Part shown: positions 2,840 through 29,862 of the stretch, piece by piece
Numbering within the stretch: the first letter of the stretch is position 1
Layout: every line of letters starts with the position of its first letter
Assembly (NCBI GenBank): GCA_039588215.1
Contig: JBDHAD010000034.1
Span: 1,230 to 65,229 of the forward strand
DNA length: 64,000 bases
From: Gemmatimonadota bacterium
Lineage (GTDB): Bacteria; Gemmatimonadota; Gemmatimonadetes; Palauibacterales; Palauibacteraceae
Reading direction: 5' to 3'
Notes under the pieces: model-generated
What the model was told of the DNA's origin: nothing
Databases searched by the model: none
What the model saw: only the letters and a program-made list of their open reading frames with translations
Translations under genes and position numbers: made by a program

Positions 2840-3117
2840 ATGCACGAAAGCCCGCATGGTTGCGGGCTTTCTCGTAATCGGGGCGGCGAGATGGCCTGCG
2901 ATCGCTCCGCGATCCGGCGATCTCCCGCCATGTACATCCAGGTCACACGGTGCAGCATATCAGGGCGGCGAGATTCAAACTCGCGACCTCCTGAACCCCA
3001 TTCAACCGGCGCAGCACGCATACACGTCGATACACTTCAGCACACACCGATTGGGCCGTTTTGACCTCCGTACACTTCCGTACAAACCTGCACACTCTGT
3101 GACAGCTAGCGTGACAG
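2840..3117 (-). repeat. Junction repeat J1: hairpin, a ~70-bp minihelix module, tRNA-Pro(GGG) 3'-half copy (2 substitutions), and an arm of 10-bp iterons ending in GTGACAG
   Basis: Aligns by eye with the repeats at 5018, 15014, 17961, 19234 and 23106, and with the tRNA-Pro 3' half at 26328. The GGGGCGGCGAGAT segment occurs twice (2880 and 2963). Confidence 0.85.
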
Positions 3118-3339
3118 TTCGATAGCTCTCGCTTCCCTGCTAGAGAGCCAAGCTCCAGGTTGCGTCACTCCCCCTGGCATACCGATACTACGGCCGGTGG
3201 CTCCTGAATCGCCGGGCGTTCTCTTCACGTAGCGTCCACGCTTCGGGGGTACCTCTCGAAGGAAAACCCCGTGGAGGTTGTCCTTCTCATCTCATCTGCT
3301 CGCATCTCGCGGTTGCAGATCATCATCAGGAGCGACGAC

Positions 3340-4750: not shown

Positions 4751-5017
4751 GGACTCGCTGGCGAACCGCTGTTTCCGAATCAGGTGTCTCGCGCGCGCGC
4801 GAACGTCCAGCGGGAGGTGTTACGAGCCATCGCTGCCAGCCGCTCCCCCGTCTTCCCACACCGAGAGATCAGACGTGGGTGCACCTGACGGCGGCCTGCA
4901 TATCTTCAGTTGCCAGGTATGGGCGCGGCGATGGGTGGTTGAAGCGTTTGATATGGTGAAGCGGCTCGTCTCTGTGACAACGTAGTCAAGTTGGGAGGCT
5001 TACCGAGAGGTCCTTGC

Positions 5018-5215
5018 ATGCACGAAAGCCCACGATCCACGTGGGCTTTCGGCGCAATCGGGGCGGCGAGATTCGAACTCGCGACCTCCTGAACCCCATT
5101 CAAGCGGCGCAGCACCCGTACACTTCGATACACTTCCGTACACACCGATTTCGGCGTTTTGACTTCCGTACACTTCCGTACACTCCTGCTCACTCTGTGA
5201 CAGCTAGCGTGACAG
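5018..5215 (-). repeat. Junction repeat J2 (canonical form): hairpin, 46-nt tRNA-Pro 3' half, and 5 copies of the CGTACACTTC-type iteron ending in GTGACAG-N5-GTGACAG
   Basis: Positions 5057-5102 are identical to 26326-26371, which is the tRNA-Pro 3' part plus flank. The hairpin stem has compensatory changes relative to other copies. Confidence 0.9.
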
Positions 5216-5627
5216 TTTGCTGGCGGTGTGATCGGCTGGCACCGGCTGACGGGTCCGGTGCGTCCAGCACACGCTCACGCGGCGTGCGCTGAGCACTCTC
5301 CCCAGAGGTGGCCGTACTTGCACTGGGTGCGTCTGCGGCACGATCCCGACACGGTAGAACTCTAGGTTCCCGCCGTTCTGCTTTCCCTGCGACGCCTTGC
5401 AAAGGTCGTGTCCGGCACGTTATGGATATTCCGGGCGGCAACTCCCGATCACGCCAGGATTTTCCCGCAACGCATCCTCAGGCGACGAGCGGCACAACGC
5501 CGTTTGTCGATCCTTTTCTGAATAGGCCGACCACTTGATAGGCAAGTATTCGGCTTCGCTCGGTGGGTGGGCCACCGCTCGAGGGGTGGACGGGAAGACG
5601 AAAGCCCAAGCAGCCCTGGAGGTCCAA

Positions 5628-8078: not shown

Positions 8079-9122
8079 CTAGCTGTGCGTCGCAAGGACG
8101 TTGCTCACCCTGAGCTTGACGAGGCGCTGGAAAGGCGTCCGCCGTCCGATGCCGGCATGCTTTCGGGTGAGATTGTATTAGCGTAGCCAGGCCCGCAGCA
8201 TCTTCGTCCGTTCCCTCGAGTGGTGATAGGGCCGACCACAGGCCCACTCCTCCGCCGAGGTGCGGATGAAGCGCTCCACCTTGCCATTCGTTCGGGGCGT
8301 GTACGGCCGGGTAAACAGGTGACGGATCCCAAGCTCGCGCAGCGTCCGCCCGAAGAGCTTCGATCGATACCCCGGGCCATTGTCCGTCATGAGCTGTGCG
8401 ATCTTCACCCCCTGGCACTCGAAGAAGGCCACCACGCGAAGGAGGAACGCCGTCACGTCTTCCTTGCGCTCGCTCTCCAAGACCTCCCCATAGGCCACAC
8501 GGCTCGCGTCGTCGATCGCGGCGTGGTAAGACTCCCAGCCCACGCCCAGGCTTCGCTGACTTCGGTCGCCGTGGATCCGGTGTCCAATGCGCTCGATCCG
8601 CGCCAGCTTCTTAATATCCATGTGCACCAGCGAGCCGGGCCGGGACCGCTCGTATCGGACCACCGGAACCGGAGGGGCCAGTCTCGAGAGCCGGTTCAGC
8701 CCCAACCGCCTCACCTCCACCGTCACCGTTGAGACCGGCATCTTGAGGTGATCGGCGATCCGGGGGCTGCTCCACCGCTTCCGCCTGAGCCGCTCGATCT
8801 GCCGACGACGCGCTCGCGGGATCCGTCTCGGGTGTCGGTGTGGCCTCGAGCTCCGGTCCTCCAGCCCCACCTCTCCCTCCTCCCGGTAGCGCTTGAGCCA
8901 TTTGAACGCCGTCCGCCGGCTCACGCCCATCTCCCGGGCCACCACCTCCGCACGCTCCCCTGTCTCAATCCTCCTGACCAGCAGGGCTCGCCCCGCAGGC
9001 GTCAGCTTCGCATTCTTGTGCACGTTCACCGGATCCCCCGACGAGTAGGTTGTGAAGGCTTCGAACACCTCCAGCTTACTCGTCGGCTTCCGGTGAACAA
9101 CCATCCTGTGACTTAGACCTAG
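8079..9122 (-). mobile_element. IS481-family insertion sequence (~1.04 kb)
   Basis: Contains the transposase ORF. CTAG is present at both proposed ends (8079-8082 and 9119-9122). Weak terminal inverted repeats match at 12 of 19 positions including CTAG. The boundaries are tentative. Confidence 0.55.
8178..9029 (-). CDS. IS481-family DDE transposase (HTH plus integrase core)
   Basis: The N-terminus VNVHKNAKLTPAGRALLVRR, then SRRTAFKWLKRYREEG, RSSRPHRHPRR, and the catalytic core (HMDIKKL, TDNG, RPYTPRTNGKVERF) are classic IS481/IS3-like features. Confidence 0.9.
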   Translation of the reverse strand: MNVHKNAKLTPAGRALLVRRIETGERAEVVAREMGVSRRTAFKWLKRYREEGEVGLEDRSSRPHRHPRRIPRARRRQIERLRRKRWSSPRIADHLKMPVSTVTVEVRRLGLNRLSRLAPPVPVVRYERSRPGSLVHMDIKKLARIERIGHRIHGDRSQRSLGVGWESYHAAIDDASRVAYGEVLESERKEDVTAFLLRVVAFFECQGVKIAQLMTDNGPGYRSKLFGRTLRELGIRHLFTRPYTPRTNGKVERFIRTSAEEWACGRPYHHSRERTKMLRAWLR

Positions 9123-11183: not shown

Positions 11184-11433
11184 AATCGGAGCGGCGAGAT
11201 TCGGGGAGCTTGCGACGAGCGAGGACCGCGTCAGCGGCTGCAGCTCTCACTCGCGACCTCCTGCCGTCGAGCCGAAGGCGAGACACTGAGCAGGCGTAGC
11301 CTACGAAGCCACCCCATTCAAGCGGCGCAGCACCCGTACACTTCGATACACTTCAGTACACACCGATTTGGCCGTCTTGACTTCCGTACACTTCAGTACA
11401 CTCCTGCACACTCTGTGACAGTAGGCGTGACAG
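11184..11433 (-). repeat. Junction repeat J3: no terminal hairpin, tRNA-Pro 3' half interrupted by two ~48-nt insertions, plus the iteron arm
   Basis: Near-identical to 23226-23473, including both insertions (11202-11249 and 11264-11311). Confidence 0.85.
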
Positions 11434-11550
11434 TGCGAAGCCATGCGGTCGGGCTTGGTCCCACCGACGATGGCGACCACTCTGGGCATTGTCCCCAGGT
11501 CCTTTCGATGCTATTGCCCGGCGCAATCCCCATCCTCATCGTCAGAATCC

Positions 11551-15013: not shown

Positions 15014-15190
15014 ATGCACGAAAGCCCGCATGGTTGCGGGCTTTCTGCGTAATCGGGGCGGCGAGATTCGAACTCGCGACCTCCTGAACCCCATTCAAGC
15101 GGCGCAGCACCCGTACACTTCGATACACTTCTTTTGACTTCCGTACACTTCGATACAAACCTGCACACTCTGTGACAGTAGGCGTGACAG
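15014..15190 (-). repeat. Junction repeat J4: hairpin, tRNA-Pro 3' half, and a shortened iteron arm with a 20-nt deletion
   Basis: Its 47-nt tRNA-derived block (from AATCGGGG to CCATTCA) is identical to that of J2, J5, J6 and tRNA-Pro. The arm lacks CGTACACACCGATTTCGGCG. Confidence 0.9.
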
Positions 15191-17960: not shown

Positions 17961-18156
17961 ATGCTGAAAGCCCGCATGGTTGCGGGCTTTTCGCATAATC
18001 GGGGCGGCGAGATTCGAACTCGCGACCTCCTGAACCCCATTCAACCGGCGCAGCACGCGTACACCCGCGTACACTTGATCTCACGCTGATTTCGGTGGAA
18101 CGACGTGATCTCAGTCGATCTCAGACTTGCTCATTCTGTGACAGCTAGCGTGACAG
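17961..18156 (-). repeat. Junction repeat J5: hairpin, tRNA-Pro 3' half, and a divergent arm with GATCTCA x3 in place of most TACACTTC iterons
   Basis: The core is identical to the other copies. The arm (18057-18130) differs, but the terminal CTGTGACAGCTAGCGTGACAG is retained. Confidence 0.85.
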
Positions 18157-18291
18157 TCCGTGATGATCTCCTCAGACCCACTGACCAGCTTTCGGTTCTC
18201 TGGGTCTAACTCACCCGTACCGGGGCCCTCGGTCGCCGGATCTCAAAGGAGCCTGCGTGGCAGCCGTCGGAGATCATCCCCCGAAAGGAAG

Positions 18292-19233: not shown

Positions 19234-19429
19234 ATGCACGAAAGCCCGCATGTTCGCGGGCTTTCGACCAATCGGGGCGGCGAGATTCGAACTCGCGACC
19301 TCCTGAACCCCATTCAAGCGGCGCAGCACCCGCACACTTCGATACAATTCAGTATACACCGATTGGACCGTTTTGACTTCCGTACACTTCAGTACAAACC
19401 TGCACACCCTGTGACAGCTAGCGTGACAG
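19234..19429 (-). repeat. Junction repeat J6: hairpin, tRNA-Pro 3' half, and iteron arm
   Basis: Core identical to J2, J4, J5 and the tRNA. The arm is collinear with J1 and J2 with scattered substitutions. Confidence 0.9.
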
Positions 19430-19560
19430 TTCGGGATCCCAGCAGCCTCTCCCGCTCCGCCACGAGCTACTCAGTGCCGAAGGCGACGGTGGGCCTTGAA
19501 GAGGGGGCGCCCCGCGTGGGGCCGCCCCGGCCGCGTAGCCCGACGGATCGAGTTGAGAGC

Positions 19561-23105: not shown

Positions 23106-23473
23106 ATGCACGAAAGCCCGCATGGTTGCAGGCTTTCTGCCAATCGGGGCGGCGAGATTAGCTACGATCGCTACGCGATCCGCTGATCTCCCGCCACATC
23201 CATCCCGGTAAGACAGTGCAGCATATCGGGGCGGCGAGATTCGGGGAGCTTGCGACGAGCGAGGACCGCGTCAGCGGCCGCAGCTCTCACTCGCGACCTC
23301 CTGCCGTCGAGCCGCAGGCGAGACACTGAGCAGGCGCAGCCTGCGAAGCCACCCCATTCAAGCGGCGCAGCACCCGCACACTTCGATACACTTCCGTACA
23401 CACTGATTTCGCCGTTTTGACCTCAGTACACTTCCGTACAAACCTGCACACTCTGTGACAGTAGGCGTGACAA
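23106..23473 (-). repeat. Junction repeat J7 (largest form): hairpin, minihelix module, tRNA-Pro 3' half with two ~48-nt insertions, and iteron arm
   Basis: Combines the extra module seen in J1 (23160-23226) with the two insertions seen in J3 (23242-23289 and 23304-23351). Confidence 0.85.
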
Positions 23474-23579
23474 GTCATTTTGGCAGTCTGTCGGGCCTTT
23501 GCTTGCCGCCCCCCTTCCCCATGATCAGCTTCAAGAGCGTGGAGGCTCTGAGCTGACACCCTGACCCAGGCGGTCCGCG

Positions 23580-26264
23580 ATGTCCCCCGGGTTCGACAAG
23601 CTCAAAATGGCGCTGGCCGACCGCTACCAGATCGAGCGCAAGCTCGGCGAGGGCGGCATGGCGACCGTCTACCTGGCCCGCGACCTCAAGCACAACCGGA
23701 GCGTCGCGGTCAAGGTTCTGAGACCGGATCTGGCGGCGGTCGTCGGGGCCGAGCGATTCCTCACCGAGATCGAAACCACGGCGAACCTGCAGCACCCACA
23801 TATCCTGCCGCTGTTCGACTCCGGGGAGGCCAACGGCTTCCTCTTCTACGTCATGCCCTACGTCGAGGGCGAGACGCTGCGAGACCGGTTGGAGCGGGAA
23901 GGCCAGCTCTCAATCGATGAGACCCTCAGGATCGCGAGAGAGGTCGCGGACGGCTTGAGCTGTGCCCACGCCGCCGGGGTTGTACACCGTGACATTAAAC
24001 CCGCGAACATCCTGCTGTCCCGGGGTCATGCGACGATCGCCGACTTCGGGATCGCCACCGCACTTAGCGAGGCCGGTGGCGACCGGCTGACGCAGACCGG
24101 GGTCAGCCTCGGCACGCCGATCTACATGAGCCCCGAGCAGGCCTCCGGAGAGGGACGAGCGGACGTCCGCAGCGACATCTACGCCCTCGGGTGTGTCGTG
24201 TACGAGATGCTGGCAGGGGATCCTCCATTCACCGGATCGAACCCGCAGGCGATCCTGGCGCGGAAAACTGTGGAAGCCCCCCCGGCGATCCGCACGGTGC
24301 GCGAGACCGTGCCCGGATCCGTCGAACAGGCGATCCTGCGGGCAGTCGCCAGGGTACCCGCCGACCGGTTTCGGAGCGCAGAGGAGTTCGCCGAGGCCCT
24401 GACGGCGACCGACCGTGAGCGGCCGCCCGTGACGCGGACCCGGTCCCGGGTTGGGGCTCGGGCGCGCCGGATCCTAGCGTACTCCGTTCCGTCCATCGGC
24501 GCCATCTTCTTGCTCCTATGGGCGGTTCGTTCGGCGAGCGAGCGTGGGACGGGTGTCGATCTGTCCGACATGACGCTGCGGCCACTGACCAACTTCGTCG
24601 GGTGGGAGCATTCTCCCAGCTGGTCGCCCGATGGGAGCATGATCACGTACAGCCACATCGTGGGAGGAGACGCAGACATCGCCACGCTTTCCGTCGGCGG
24701 TGGGGAGCCTCACATCCTGACGGGTCATAGTCCGGCCGATGAGTTCCTACCAAGGTGGTCTCCGGACGGGTCACGGATCGCTTACGTGTCGGATCGGGGG
24801 ACCGGCACGGACGTCTACCTGATCTCTCCGACCGGAGGGACGGAGCAGAAGCTAGTGGAGACCCACATCCCCTTCTTCGAGCGACTCAGCGCGTGGGCGG
24901 CCGTGCTGGGCACCAACGCCTGGTCGCCAGAAGGAGAGGAGCTGGCCTTTTCGAGGCTGCACGAATCGGGAGAGGTCGCGCTCTGGAAGGTGAACCTGGC
25001 GACGCGGCAGGAGACACGCCTCACGACCCCGCCGCCGGCCGTGGAGGACGGGTGGGGGTCCTGGTCGTGGGACGGAAGCTCGATCGTATTCGTTCGAAAC
25101 GAGACGGGATCTCGCACGCTCTGGCAGGTGCCGGCGGAGGGCGGCGAGGCCACACTGCTGTTCGGCGAGTTCGCGGTGCACCCGGCCTGGTTTCCCGATG
25201 GGCGGCGGATTGCTTTCGCGTCTGTGCGGAGTGGCGCGTCCAACCTGTGGGAGCTCGACGTCCGGGACGGCGCCCTGCGGCAGCTGACCCAAGGCGCCGG
25301 CATCGACTTGACTCCGGCGATCGCGAGTAATGGCGCGATCGCCTACCAGCAGTTCGGTCACGAGATCGAGCTCAGATGGGCGCGACTGGATGCCCCCGAC
25401 GAGGAGCATGAGCGCCTGACGTCATTTACCGGGGAGAACTTCGGGGCTCGAGTCTCACCCGACGGGTCCCGGGTCTTGTACTATTCCAACCGGTCCGGAA
25501 ACTACGACCTGTGGATCCTTGAGCGCGCCACGGGTCAGCACCGCCAGATCACGAACGATCCGGCGGCCGACCGACTCGCGGATTGGTCGCCGGATAGCGA
25601 CGAAATCGTGTTCATGTCGAACCGGGGAGGGGTGGTCCGGCTCTGGGTGGCCGAGACCGAGACTGGCGCGACGCGTCCGCTCACGAACCACGCCCTTCCC
25701 TGGGAGACCCACGAGGCGGAAGCGCAGGGGGGTCCCCGGTGGTCCCCGGACGGTCAGCTCGTCGGATATCTTGCGCCAGCGGACGGAGATGCCGCGATTT
25801 GGGTGGTCGCCCCAGACGGCGGAGCGCCACGGCCGACGGGGGTCCGGGGGGCCCTCAGTTTCGGCTGGTATCTGGACAGCGAGCGCGTCGTGTACACGAG
25901 GCGCGCTCTGGACGGCTCCGGGCTCGTGGAGCTGCGCGCCGCCCATCTCGGGTCCGGCGAGGACGTGCTGCTTCGGGCAGGGCCGTTGGCCGAAATGGCG
26001 ACCTCGCCGGATGGGAGTGCCGTCAGTTTCGTCCAGTCACCGAGCCACTTCACGATGGACCTCTTCGTTCTCCGGCTGACGCCGCCCGATCCCCGTGACG
26101 AACTTCCCCGGGGCGTGGGCGTCCCACAGCAGATCACCTTCGGAGGGGGCGCATGGCACGTCCACAACGGAGGCTGGGCCCCGGATGGCAGCGGAGTCGT
26201 CTACTCGCGGGACCGGGATTTCGGGGACGTGTTCGTCATCGAGCCGACCGCCGGAGACGGCTGA
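23580..26264 (+). CDS. Ser/Thr protein kinase fused to a TolB-like beta-propeller
   Basis: Kinase motifs GEGGMATVYLA, HRDIKPAN, DFG and YMSPEQ. Many SPDGS / WSPDG propeller repeats. Paralog of 15296-17908. Confidence 0.9.
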   Translation: MSPGFDKLKMALADRYQIERKLGEGGMATVYLARDLKHNRSVAVKVLRPDLAAVVGAERFLTEIETTANLQHPHILPLFDSGEANGFLFYVMPYVEGETLRDRLEREGQLSIDETLRIAREVADGLSCAHAAGVVHRDIKPANILLSRGHATIADFGIATALSEAGGDRLTQTGVSLGTPIYMSPEQASGEGRADVRSDIYALGCVVYEMLAGDPPFTGSNPQAILARKTVEAPPAIRTVRETVPGSVEQAILRAVARVPADRFRSAEEFAEALTATDRERPPVTRTRSRVGARARRILAYSVPSIGAIFLLLWAVRSASERGTGVDLSDMTLRPLTNFVGWEHSPSWSPDGSMITYSHIVGGDADIATLSVGGGEPHILTGHSPADEFLPRWSPDGSRIAYVSDRGTGTDVYLISPTGGTEQKLVETHIPFFERLSAWAAVLGTNAWSPEGEELAFSRLHESGEVALWKVNLATRQETRLTTPPPAVEDGWGSWSWDGSSIVFVRNETGSRTLWQVPAEGGEATLLFGEFAVHPAWFPDGRRIAFASVRSGASNLWELDVRDGALRQLTQGAGIDLTPAIASNGAIAYQQFGHEIELRWARLDAPDEEHERLTSFTGENFGARVSPDGSRVLYYSNRSGNYDLWILERATGQHRQITNDPAADRLADWSPDSDEIVFMSNRGGVVRLWVAETETGATRPLTNHALPWETHEAEAQGGPRWSPDGQLVGYLAPADGDAAIWVVAPDGGAPRPTGVRGALSFGWYLDSERVVYTRRALDGSGLVELRAAHLGSGEDVLLRAGPLAEMATSPDGSAVSFVQSPSHFTMDLFVLRLTPPDPRDELPRGVGVPQQITFGGGAWHVHNGGWAPDGSGVVYSRDRDFGDVFVIEPTAGDG

Positions 26265-26295
26265 GATCGGCTCCGGGTCATCCCATTGACGCAAG

Positions 26296-26320
26296 AAAGC
26301 CCGCATGGTTGCGGGCTTTC
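26296..26320. terminator. GC-rich hairpin between the kinase 3' end and the tRNA-Pro 3' end (putative bidirectional terminator)
   Basis: GAAAGCCCGCA-TGGT-TGCGGGCTTTC. The same hairpin opens most of the junction repeats (absent from J3). Confidence 0.6.
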
Positions 26321-26327
26321 GGCGCAA

Positions 26328-26401
26328 TCGGGGCGGCGAGATTCGAACTCGCGACCTCCTGAACCCCATTCAGGCGCGCTACCGGGCTGCGCCACGCCCC
26401 G
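26328..26401 (-). tRNA. tRNA-Pro (anticodon GGG)
   Basis: Manual cloverleaf, 74 nt: acceptor CGGGGCG/CGCCCCG, D stem GCGC/GCGC, anticodon stem CCTGA/TCAGG with loop AUGGGGU, T arm GCGAG-TTCGAAT-CTCGC. Confidence 0.9.
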
Positions 26402-26502
26402 ATGTGGATGGGAAGGGGAAGCTATGCCCTGGCGCACGCTGGTCAAGCAACCCGCGGGGGTTGATCTTGGCCCCGGTCTTGCGTATCTATATATTCGCAT
26501 TT

Positions 26503-29800: not shown

Positions 29801-29862
29801 TGGAGCCGGCGGGACTCGAACCCGCGACCTCTTGAGTGCGATTCAAGCGCTCTCCCAACCCC
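29801..29862 (-). pseudogene. Truncated tRNA-Ala(CGC)-like sequence lacking the 5' D-stem and most of the 5' acceptor strand
   Basis: Intact T arm (GCGGG-TTCGAGT-CCCGC), anticodon arm (CTTGA-AUCGCAC-TCAAG) and GGGAGAGCGC. Only GGGGTTG lies upstream, and there is no GCTC D-stem partner. Confidence 0.5.

Follow-up and report, generated by a model that had tools for sequence, protein, structure and literature searches.

Repeat-bearing arms beside tRNA-Pro copies in a Gemmatimonadota genome: probable lambda-type attachment sites between recombinase-less cassettes

The ICESt1/ICESt3 CIMEs of Streptococcus thermophilus are described as att-flanked and as growing by tandem accretion (Pavlovic 2004; Bellanger 2011; both cited in PMC5812530). 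The islands at the ssrA gene of Dehalococcoides rely on a serine recombinase, and their 20-bp repeat has no arms (PMC3146451). In Prochlorococcus, tycheposons carry an integrase of their own, and the partial tRNAs of the islands in which they reside are remnants (bioRxiv 10.1101/2020.12.28.424599). As to the accessory proteins of such systems, winged-helix RDFs and their relatives (lambda Xis, Pukovnik Xis, P2 Cox, BldC) polymerize head to tail into filaments in which each DNA turn accommodates one protomer, and the sites of RdfS and BldC show little sequence consensus (PMC11963761).

The locus described here consists of cassettes lined up at a tRNA-Pro(GGG) gene, with a repeat-bearing, non-tRNA arm and a partial copy of that tRNA at each joint. 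We consider it probable that the arm constitutes the P arm in a lambda-type two-armed attachment module of about 300 bp by which recombinase-less cassettes are joined at tRNA-Pro(GGG). The window, that is the whole stretch of 64,000 nucleotides that was analysed, lies on contig C34 (JBDHAD010000034.1) of a 3.75-Mb metagenome-assembled genome (MAG) that is 85% complete. It contains seven copies, J1 to J7, of a 163-nt repeat family (starts at 2957, 5055, 11273, 15050, 17996, 19269 and 23313). The coordinates of the features are collected in Table 1.

Table 1. Positions, in the window, of the arms, of the elements recognized at J2 and of the tRNA gene that anchors the array.
Feature	Position	Strand	Description
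J2 arm (proposed P arm)	5103..5217	-	115 nt: doublet, seven 10-bp slots and linker to the core
J2 doublet	5197..5215	-	CTGTCAC-GCTAG-CTGTCAC, 12-bp period; copies at 5209-5215 and 5197-5203 with GCTAG between them; proposed integrase arm-type sites
J2 decamer slots 1-2	5167..5186	-	GGAGTGTACG (5177-5186) and GAAGTGTACG (5167-5176)
J2 slots 3-4	5147..5166	-	A-rich spacer GAAGTCAAAACGCCGAAATC, conserved and in register with the decamers; may be a bending site
J2 decamer slots 5-7	5117..5146	-	GGTGTGTACG (5137-5146), GAAGTGTATC (5127-5136) and GAAGTGTACG (5117-5126)
J2 core	5058..5102	-	tRNA-Pro(GGG) copy, anticodon stem to 3' end
J2, start of proposed P' arm	5018..5050	-	terminator hairpin (5024-5050) and GTGCAT
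J2, single TGTCAC	4974..4979	-	remnant where relatives have the P' doublet or triplet
J1 arm	3007..3119	-	
J3 arm	11321..11435	-	followed by a long core with inserts
J4 arm	15098..15190	-	20-nt deletion variant, four decamers
J5 arm	18044..18158	-	TGAGATC-type repeats in slots 1, 2 and 5
J6 arm	19317..19431	-	
J7 arm	23361..23475	-	followed by a long core with inserts
Genuine tRNA-Pro(GGG)	26327..26402	-	array anchor (attB-derived end)

When the minus strand is read directly, all the elements that the initial annotation had described in the non-tRNA arm of J2 are visible, i.e. five GAAGTGTACG-like decamers, an A-rich spacer and a CTGTCAC-N5-CTGTCAC doublet; a linker of 14 nt separates the last decamer from the tRNA-Pro(GGG) copy. 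The common layout that had been ascribed to J1, J3, J4, J6 and J7 was confirmed for J1, J3, J6 and J7, but J4 lacks 20 nt corresponding to one decamer and part of the spacer. The initial annotation had also counted eight junctions. Its eighth is the genuine tRNA-Pro(GGG), which carries no arm, and arms are present at seven. Allowing one mismatch at most, GAAGTGTACG matches the window 15 times versus 2.07 times expected (none of 100 shuffles reaches 15), and all but one of these matches fall inside junctions. Genome-wide, about 18 arm copies exist (on C34, C38, C89, C91, C60, C53 and C16), to which the clusters of AGTGTAY and all 18 TGTCAC-N5/6-TGTCAC doublets of the genome are confined. A search for the decamer elsewhere in the genome, which had been proposed at the outset, therefore recovers motif clusters only in arm copies, and the concern that the decamers might not be conserved in further copies of the repeat is removed by a layout that recurs about 18 times in the genome and across genera.

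The arm was detected in eight of 61 related genomes, which belong to five genera of one family and one of which holds 14 copies. Altogether, the lineages known to carry it number at least 14 among Gemmatimonadota MAGs, and some 20 metagenome contigs have it too. When 185,579 species genomes were scanned for the pattern, the matches came from marine-sediment Gemmatimonadota MAGs and three small contigs binned elsewhere. No arm was recognized among IMG/VR viral contigs; a single match had the 20-nt spacing typical of the arm and is attributable to chance, and three others had different spacings. The arrays of three relatives (G029, G004 and G015) begin at the same tRNA-Pro(GGG).

Every arm adjoins a copy of tRNA-Pro that starts at the anticodon stem. 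This core reproduces the part of the host tRNA-Pro that extends from the anticodon stem to the 3' end; its T arm tracks the tRNA of the respective genome. The two halves of the anticodon stem, CTTGA and TCAGG, are located on either side of a 7-nt loop, the left half-site having diverged in G015. The core thereby combines the two properties of an att-type core, identity with its target and inverted core-type sites around an overlap of 6-8 bp. The anticodon loop of J2, ATGGGGT (5093-5099), is the likely crossover region. In other lineages (G042, G012), displaced tRNA-Pro fragments start at the same tRNA position and adjoin unrelated arms. A 'tRNA-Thr(ggt)' reported by ARAGORN at 5057-5148 was rejected as spurious, i.e. 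as an artefact of the tRNA-derived core, and the Rfam tRNA model finds no match there.

In five junction copies of the genome, J3 and J7 among them, hairpin inserts separate the anticodon loop from the 3' half of the stem, and these cores should be inactive. Short hairpin modules interrupt tRNA-derived cores after the anticodon loop or in the T loop (window 23242-23351 and 11200-11310; metagenome locus L178:1525-1800), and further copies are found on contigs C99, C46, C39 and C44 of the same genome. At least six sequences that differ by compensatory changes preserve the stem of the first hairpin, and wobble is seen on both strands; the T-loop module occurs also in the T loops of fragments of other tRNAs and in reversed orientation in the metagenome copy L178. 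These observations suggest small mobile palindromic inserts acting at the DNA level and not parts of an RNA. A third kind of T-loop insert, 34 nt in length, is present in metatranscriptome contigs of relatives. At 2893-2961 and 23160-23226 of the window, duplicates of the last ~16 nt of the tRNA (ATCTCGCCGCCCCGAT) enclose an additional module of about 70 nt, which looks like the scar of a second element class with its core at the extreme 3' end of the tRNA. The tRNA cluster of the window furthermore includes a tRNA-Ala(CGC) at 29801-29862 (33.9 bits with Rfam, 62-69 nt), probably a remnant from which the D arm has been deleted.

On the 3' side of the core, the units have a terminator followed by GTGCATCT. 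Fifty downstream flanks together contain 47 TGTMAC motifs versus 2.7 expected; 43 of the 47 are oriented as the doublet of the P arm, and most lie at +62, +74 or +86 from the tRNA 3' end. In 24 of these 50 units they form two or three copies of CTGTMAC with a 12-bp period at +62 to +92, and the P arm has two copies of CTGTMAC at -114 to -96. The P' repeats are seen in G015, G029, G004 and many metagenome copies, and the lineage to which G013 and G014 belong has an inverted version of them. Judged by sequence, putative arm-type repeats that are unrelated to the core sites are thus carried by both P and P'. In the genus of the genome studied here, most of the P' CTGTMAC repeats have disappeared and remnants persist at J2 and J4; such a loss would cripple a lambda-like reaction.

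The surroundings of the genuine tRNA-Pro are informative in this respect. In the arm-bearing genomes G001, G004 and G015 it is followed by the terminator of the module and GTGCATCT, in G004 and G015 also by a CTGTMAC doublet or triplet. G014 has the P' type of its own lineage at this place, including an inverted CTGTMAC doublet or triplet, and the genome studied here (G000) has the same hairpin with a variant trailer. Unrelated trailers follow tRNA-Pro in 11 arm-free relatives. The DNA 3' of tRNA-Pro is therefore element-borne. This in turn fits integration at the anticodon loop, with the resulting order tRNA 5' part, core, P', cargo, P, core, P'.

The arm itself is under constraint. Of the 45 arms that extend as far as the anticodon loop, 40 show a distance of exactly 114 nt from the first C of the doublet to that loop. 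The 40 full-length arms stem from at least 14 lineages, between which mean identity is only 72%. Lineage-weighted information peaks at AACTGTMAC, at CTGTMAC and at an AAGTG that returns every 10 nt across seven slots, and slots 3 and 4, initially described as spacer, are conserved as strongly as the decamers in terms of information content. A period of 10 is the spectral maximum of arm conservation (permutation p = 0.009). Period-3 power is nil, and the arm is accordingly non-coding; a coding reading was also ruled out by interrupted frames. Ongoing selection on the arm is indicated because motif positions and exact length have been kept across lineages that are 72% identical. Deletion variants with two to four decamers differ in length by multiples of 10 nt, and truncated arms are present as well.

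The cargo between the arms is diverse. It comprises Ser/Thr kinases with PD40 or TPR domains, TPR/BTAD proteins including a BTAD regulator, DUF1326 together with PpoB2, an erythromycin-esterase-like protein, a DUF2268 protein and an IS481 copy; sulfatases, MMPL, a Na/H exchanger and an amidohydrolase are found in relatives. Transporters are thus also represented among the cassettes. The cassettes measure 1-12 kb, and their functions are unrelated to each other. No integrase, relaxase or T4SS genes occur among the scanned cassettes, which as att-flanked units free of recombination and transfer genes correspond to CIMEs. An IS481-family transposase in the J2-J3 cassette (window 8178-9104) is the sole transposase- or recombinase-like gene of the array. 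The kinase-PD40 cassette next to the tRNA (23542-26303) and the third cassette of G029 (L060:4313-7070), a genome of a different genus, are 88% identical over 2.8 kb. In G029 this cassette occupies another array position, while the flanking tRNA cluster shows only 72% identity in the same comparison. This points to recent horizontal transfer of the cassette. The DUF2268 cassette is restricted to this genome among 37 and absent in 36 relatives, and the first cassette of the array is not the one found in G001, a member of the same genus.

We propose that each module runs from the P arm via the anticodon-loop core of tRNA-Pro(GGG) to a P' arm made up of the terminator hairpin and GTGCATCT and, in related genera, the CTGTMAC repeats, and that its copies would represent joints between cassettes inserted successively into the tRNA gene. 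The CTGTMAC doublets would most likely be bound by a heterobivalent tyrosine integrase, encoded elsewhere, through its arm-binding domain, because they are present on both arms and because elements with an integrase in the same lineage carry tandem doublets. The AAGTG(T/A)A repeats would most likely nucleate a head-to-tail track of an accessory protein of RDF type that bends the arm and sets directionality. A protein of the Xis/RDF/BldC kind is suggested because the decamers are limited to the P arm, follow each other at one per helical turn and extend over about 70 bp. While this allocation of the two repeat types is derived from their placement, we infer more generally that the repeats are bound by protein and that the cassettes are still mobile.

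No integrase was found in or next to an array in the window, about 10 other contigs of this genome, seven related MAGs and about 20 metagenome contigs; as the MAGs are incomplete, this search, which yielded no cognate heterobivalent tyrosine integrase, leaves its absence unproven. There are 12 PF00589 matches in the genome, none of them on C34 and none linked to decamer arms. No serine recombinase was found, and tblastn and a home-made integrase HMM applied to the 6090 ORFs of all fetched loci revealed no integrase beside an arm. The integrases of seven arm-bearing relatives likewise do not adjoin a unit, and the integrase adjoining tRNA-Pro in the arm-free genome G017 has no close homologue in this genome. 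In G001 an integrase and an HTH_17 protein form a pair 2.2 kb from a truncated arm (L113), and no tie to the arm was established; HTH_17 proteins show no correlation with arms.

Integrase-bearing analogues do exist in these genomes. On C38, the integrase int38, which has the Pfam domain Arm-DNA-bind_3, sits inside a module core. It belongs to a 5.4-kb element with a P4-type integrase (G000:C38:3389-8961; L016, L029) that is flanked on the left by two decamers and a core and on the right by a core with T-loop insert and a terminator. The arms of this element carry TTGGGCACA twice on both P and P', unlike the decamer arms, and no other arm-bearing genome has an int38-like protein, so that such proteins do not co-occur with arms. 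The integrase int64 (C64) has two copies of ATGGTACATGT immediately after its stop codon, and for an integrase of G015 (C40) TGGGGCATGTT is present twice in the arm. All three cases feature tandem doublets with a period of 11-12 bp that resemble CTGTCAC-N5-CTGTCAC. A further arm family, with TAGGGTCC-type tandem doublets of 11-bp period, is found directly 3' of some cores (L009, G000:C89:10246-10300; L113:6905-6960; L053:2943-3000). It follows that the tRNA-Pro cores are shared by three element families or more.

The decamers themselves had been interpreted in the initial annotation as arm-type sites of an integrase, in which case the CTGTCAC doublets would serve another factor or mark the element end. 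Placement of the arm as a P arm, its non-coding and unstructured nature, the 10-bp phase and the confinement of the decamers to junctions are all in agreement with that proposal; the doublets, however, fit the role of arm-type sites better. The decamers are conserved direct repeats beside a core, and integrases using many arm sites are known with L5 and CTnDOT, which provide a precedent. On the other hand, decamers occur on the P arm only, while doublets are found on both arms, and the integrase-linked elements of these genomes employ doublets with a period of 11-12 bp and not runs of five to seven repeats. We therefore regard decamers as integrase sites as unlikely.

Alternatively, the unit could be a transcribed small RNA in which a 5' region with the repeats is joined to a 3' domain resembling a tRNA and to a terminator, the decamers acting as a protein-binding sponge. 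All units are indeed in tRNA-sense orientation, and the terminator is kept with compensatory changes. Sequences of the arm and of long cores are moreover present in contigs of DNase-treated metatranscriptomes: contigs of runs X23 and X39 cover window 5055-5217 and 23225-23349, the latter stretch being matched by a single 188-nt contig without mismatches and with two gaps. The arm may thus be transcribed. These are, however, Logan contigs of relatives that carry neither strand nor end information, and DNA may have been carried over. No RNA structure signal is seen in the arm. RNAalifold gave -22.9 compared to -24.4 +/- 3.3 for column-shuffled alignments, the single-sequence MFE of the J2 arm has a z-score of about 0, and a search of Rfam matched no family to the arm. 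Covariation at odds with protein-binding repeats, which had been named initially as a finding that would speak against them, is thus not apparent, the alifold energy being no better than that of the column shuffles. Neither a sigma-70-like promoter nor promoter hexamers were found at the arm, the terminator is symmetric and serves cargo genes too, the T-loop insert is found in both orientations (L178), and the P' doublets lie beyond the terminator. A small RNA accordingly appears improbable.

The arms might also be functionless relics of integration in arrays shaped by homologous recombination or gene conversion between repeats of about 200 bp, or else replication iterons of excised circles, and we judge this quite improbable too. 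No recombinase was found, the P' repeats have decayed in this genus, arms exist in truncated form, and length variation in multiples of 10 nt is what slippage predicts. Against this stand the motif positions retained across lineages of 72% identity and the exact length common to 40 of the 45 arms. If the arms were relics, the array would be an ordinary scar of past integrations. As for iterons, iteron-like protein-binding sites having been offered as an alternative in the initial annotation, no Rep-like gene is present in the scanned cassettes and the spacer is an A-rich stretch of just 20 nt, so that they find little footing here. That the arm is a promoter/operator module for the adjacent cargo gene is very improbable, since five of the seven window arms do face the 5' end of a divergent cargo gene but the other two, like about four of ten in G015, face a gene 3' end, promoter-like hexamers are missing at the arm and the cargo functions are unrelated.

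Starting from the preferred reading of the arm as the P arm of a two-armed attachment module, a more far-reaching one can be put forward, though only tentatively. Marine-sediment Gemmatimonadota might possess an integron-like capture platform of lambda-type att sites that depends on one unlinked recombinase and on an accessory protein polymerizing along the decamers. Each cassette would bring a complete portable P-core-P' module, the recombinase would reside on the chromosome or on a helper element and would insert, excise and shuffle cassettes at tRNA-Pro, and the decamer track could serve as a common directionality switch. If this were true, a tRNA gene would be a dock for dozens of recombinase-less cassettes sharing one conserved two-armed site, and the build-up of a large, fast-changing part of the genome, probably more than 100 kb with genes for kinases, sulfatases, transporters and the like, would be explained for an uncultured phylum. 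Arms that are live protein-binding sites would set the system apart from integrons with their folded attC and linked integrase as well as from classical islands, each of which has an integrase of its own. The CTGTMAC doublets and the phased AAGTGTA track also offer a sharply defined DNA bait for the missing recombinase or accessory protein.

Compared with integrons (attC, attI, IntI), the analogy is purely functional and consists in recombinase-less cassettes with sites of their own at one anchor. The site described here is double-stranded, two-armed and tRNA-derived and not a folded single-stranded attC, and neither an adjacent integrase gene nor a Pc promoter is present. The islands that house tycheposons share with the arrays partial tRNA copies between integrations, newer elements that push older ones inward and adaptive cargo exchanged between cells, but a conserved 115-nt arm with phased repeats is not described there (bioRxiv 10.1101/2020.12.28.424599). 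With the filaments of RDFs and other winged-helix proteins (lambda Xis on X1-X1.5-X2 and others) the decamer track shares helical-turn phasing and a location on the P arm between arm-type sites and core; the track exceeds those of RdfS and BldC in length and in how sharply its motif is conserved.

A close resemblance exists to attP sites of lambda type (lambda, P4, L5, HP1), in which a core is placed between two arms and lies in a tRNA anticodon stem-loop. The short direct repeats, present twice on P and two or three times on P', recall P1/P2 and P'1-3 of lambda, and accessory sites exclusive to the P arm as well as an A-rich segment between arm sites and core are further common traits. The differences are that neither integrase nor xis is linked, that an accessory track of seven 10-bp slots is exceptional in length and regularity, and that the module recurs many times per chromosome and joins integrase-less cassettes. 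CIMEs and ssrA islands are likewise att-flanked, devoid of integration and transfer genes and arranged head-to-tail at one tRNA or tmRNA gene. Compared with CIMEs, at least seven, and probably more than 15, integrase-less units are present per genome here, and no array includes an intact parent element. What is of a known kind is thus the combination of a lambda-type att site with CIME-like accretion; what is new is the number of units, the lack of a parent element and the long decamer track.
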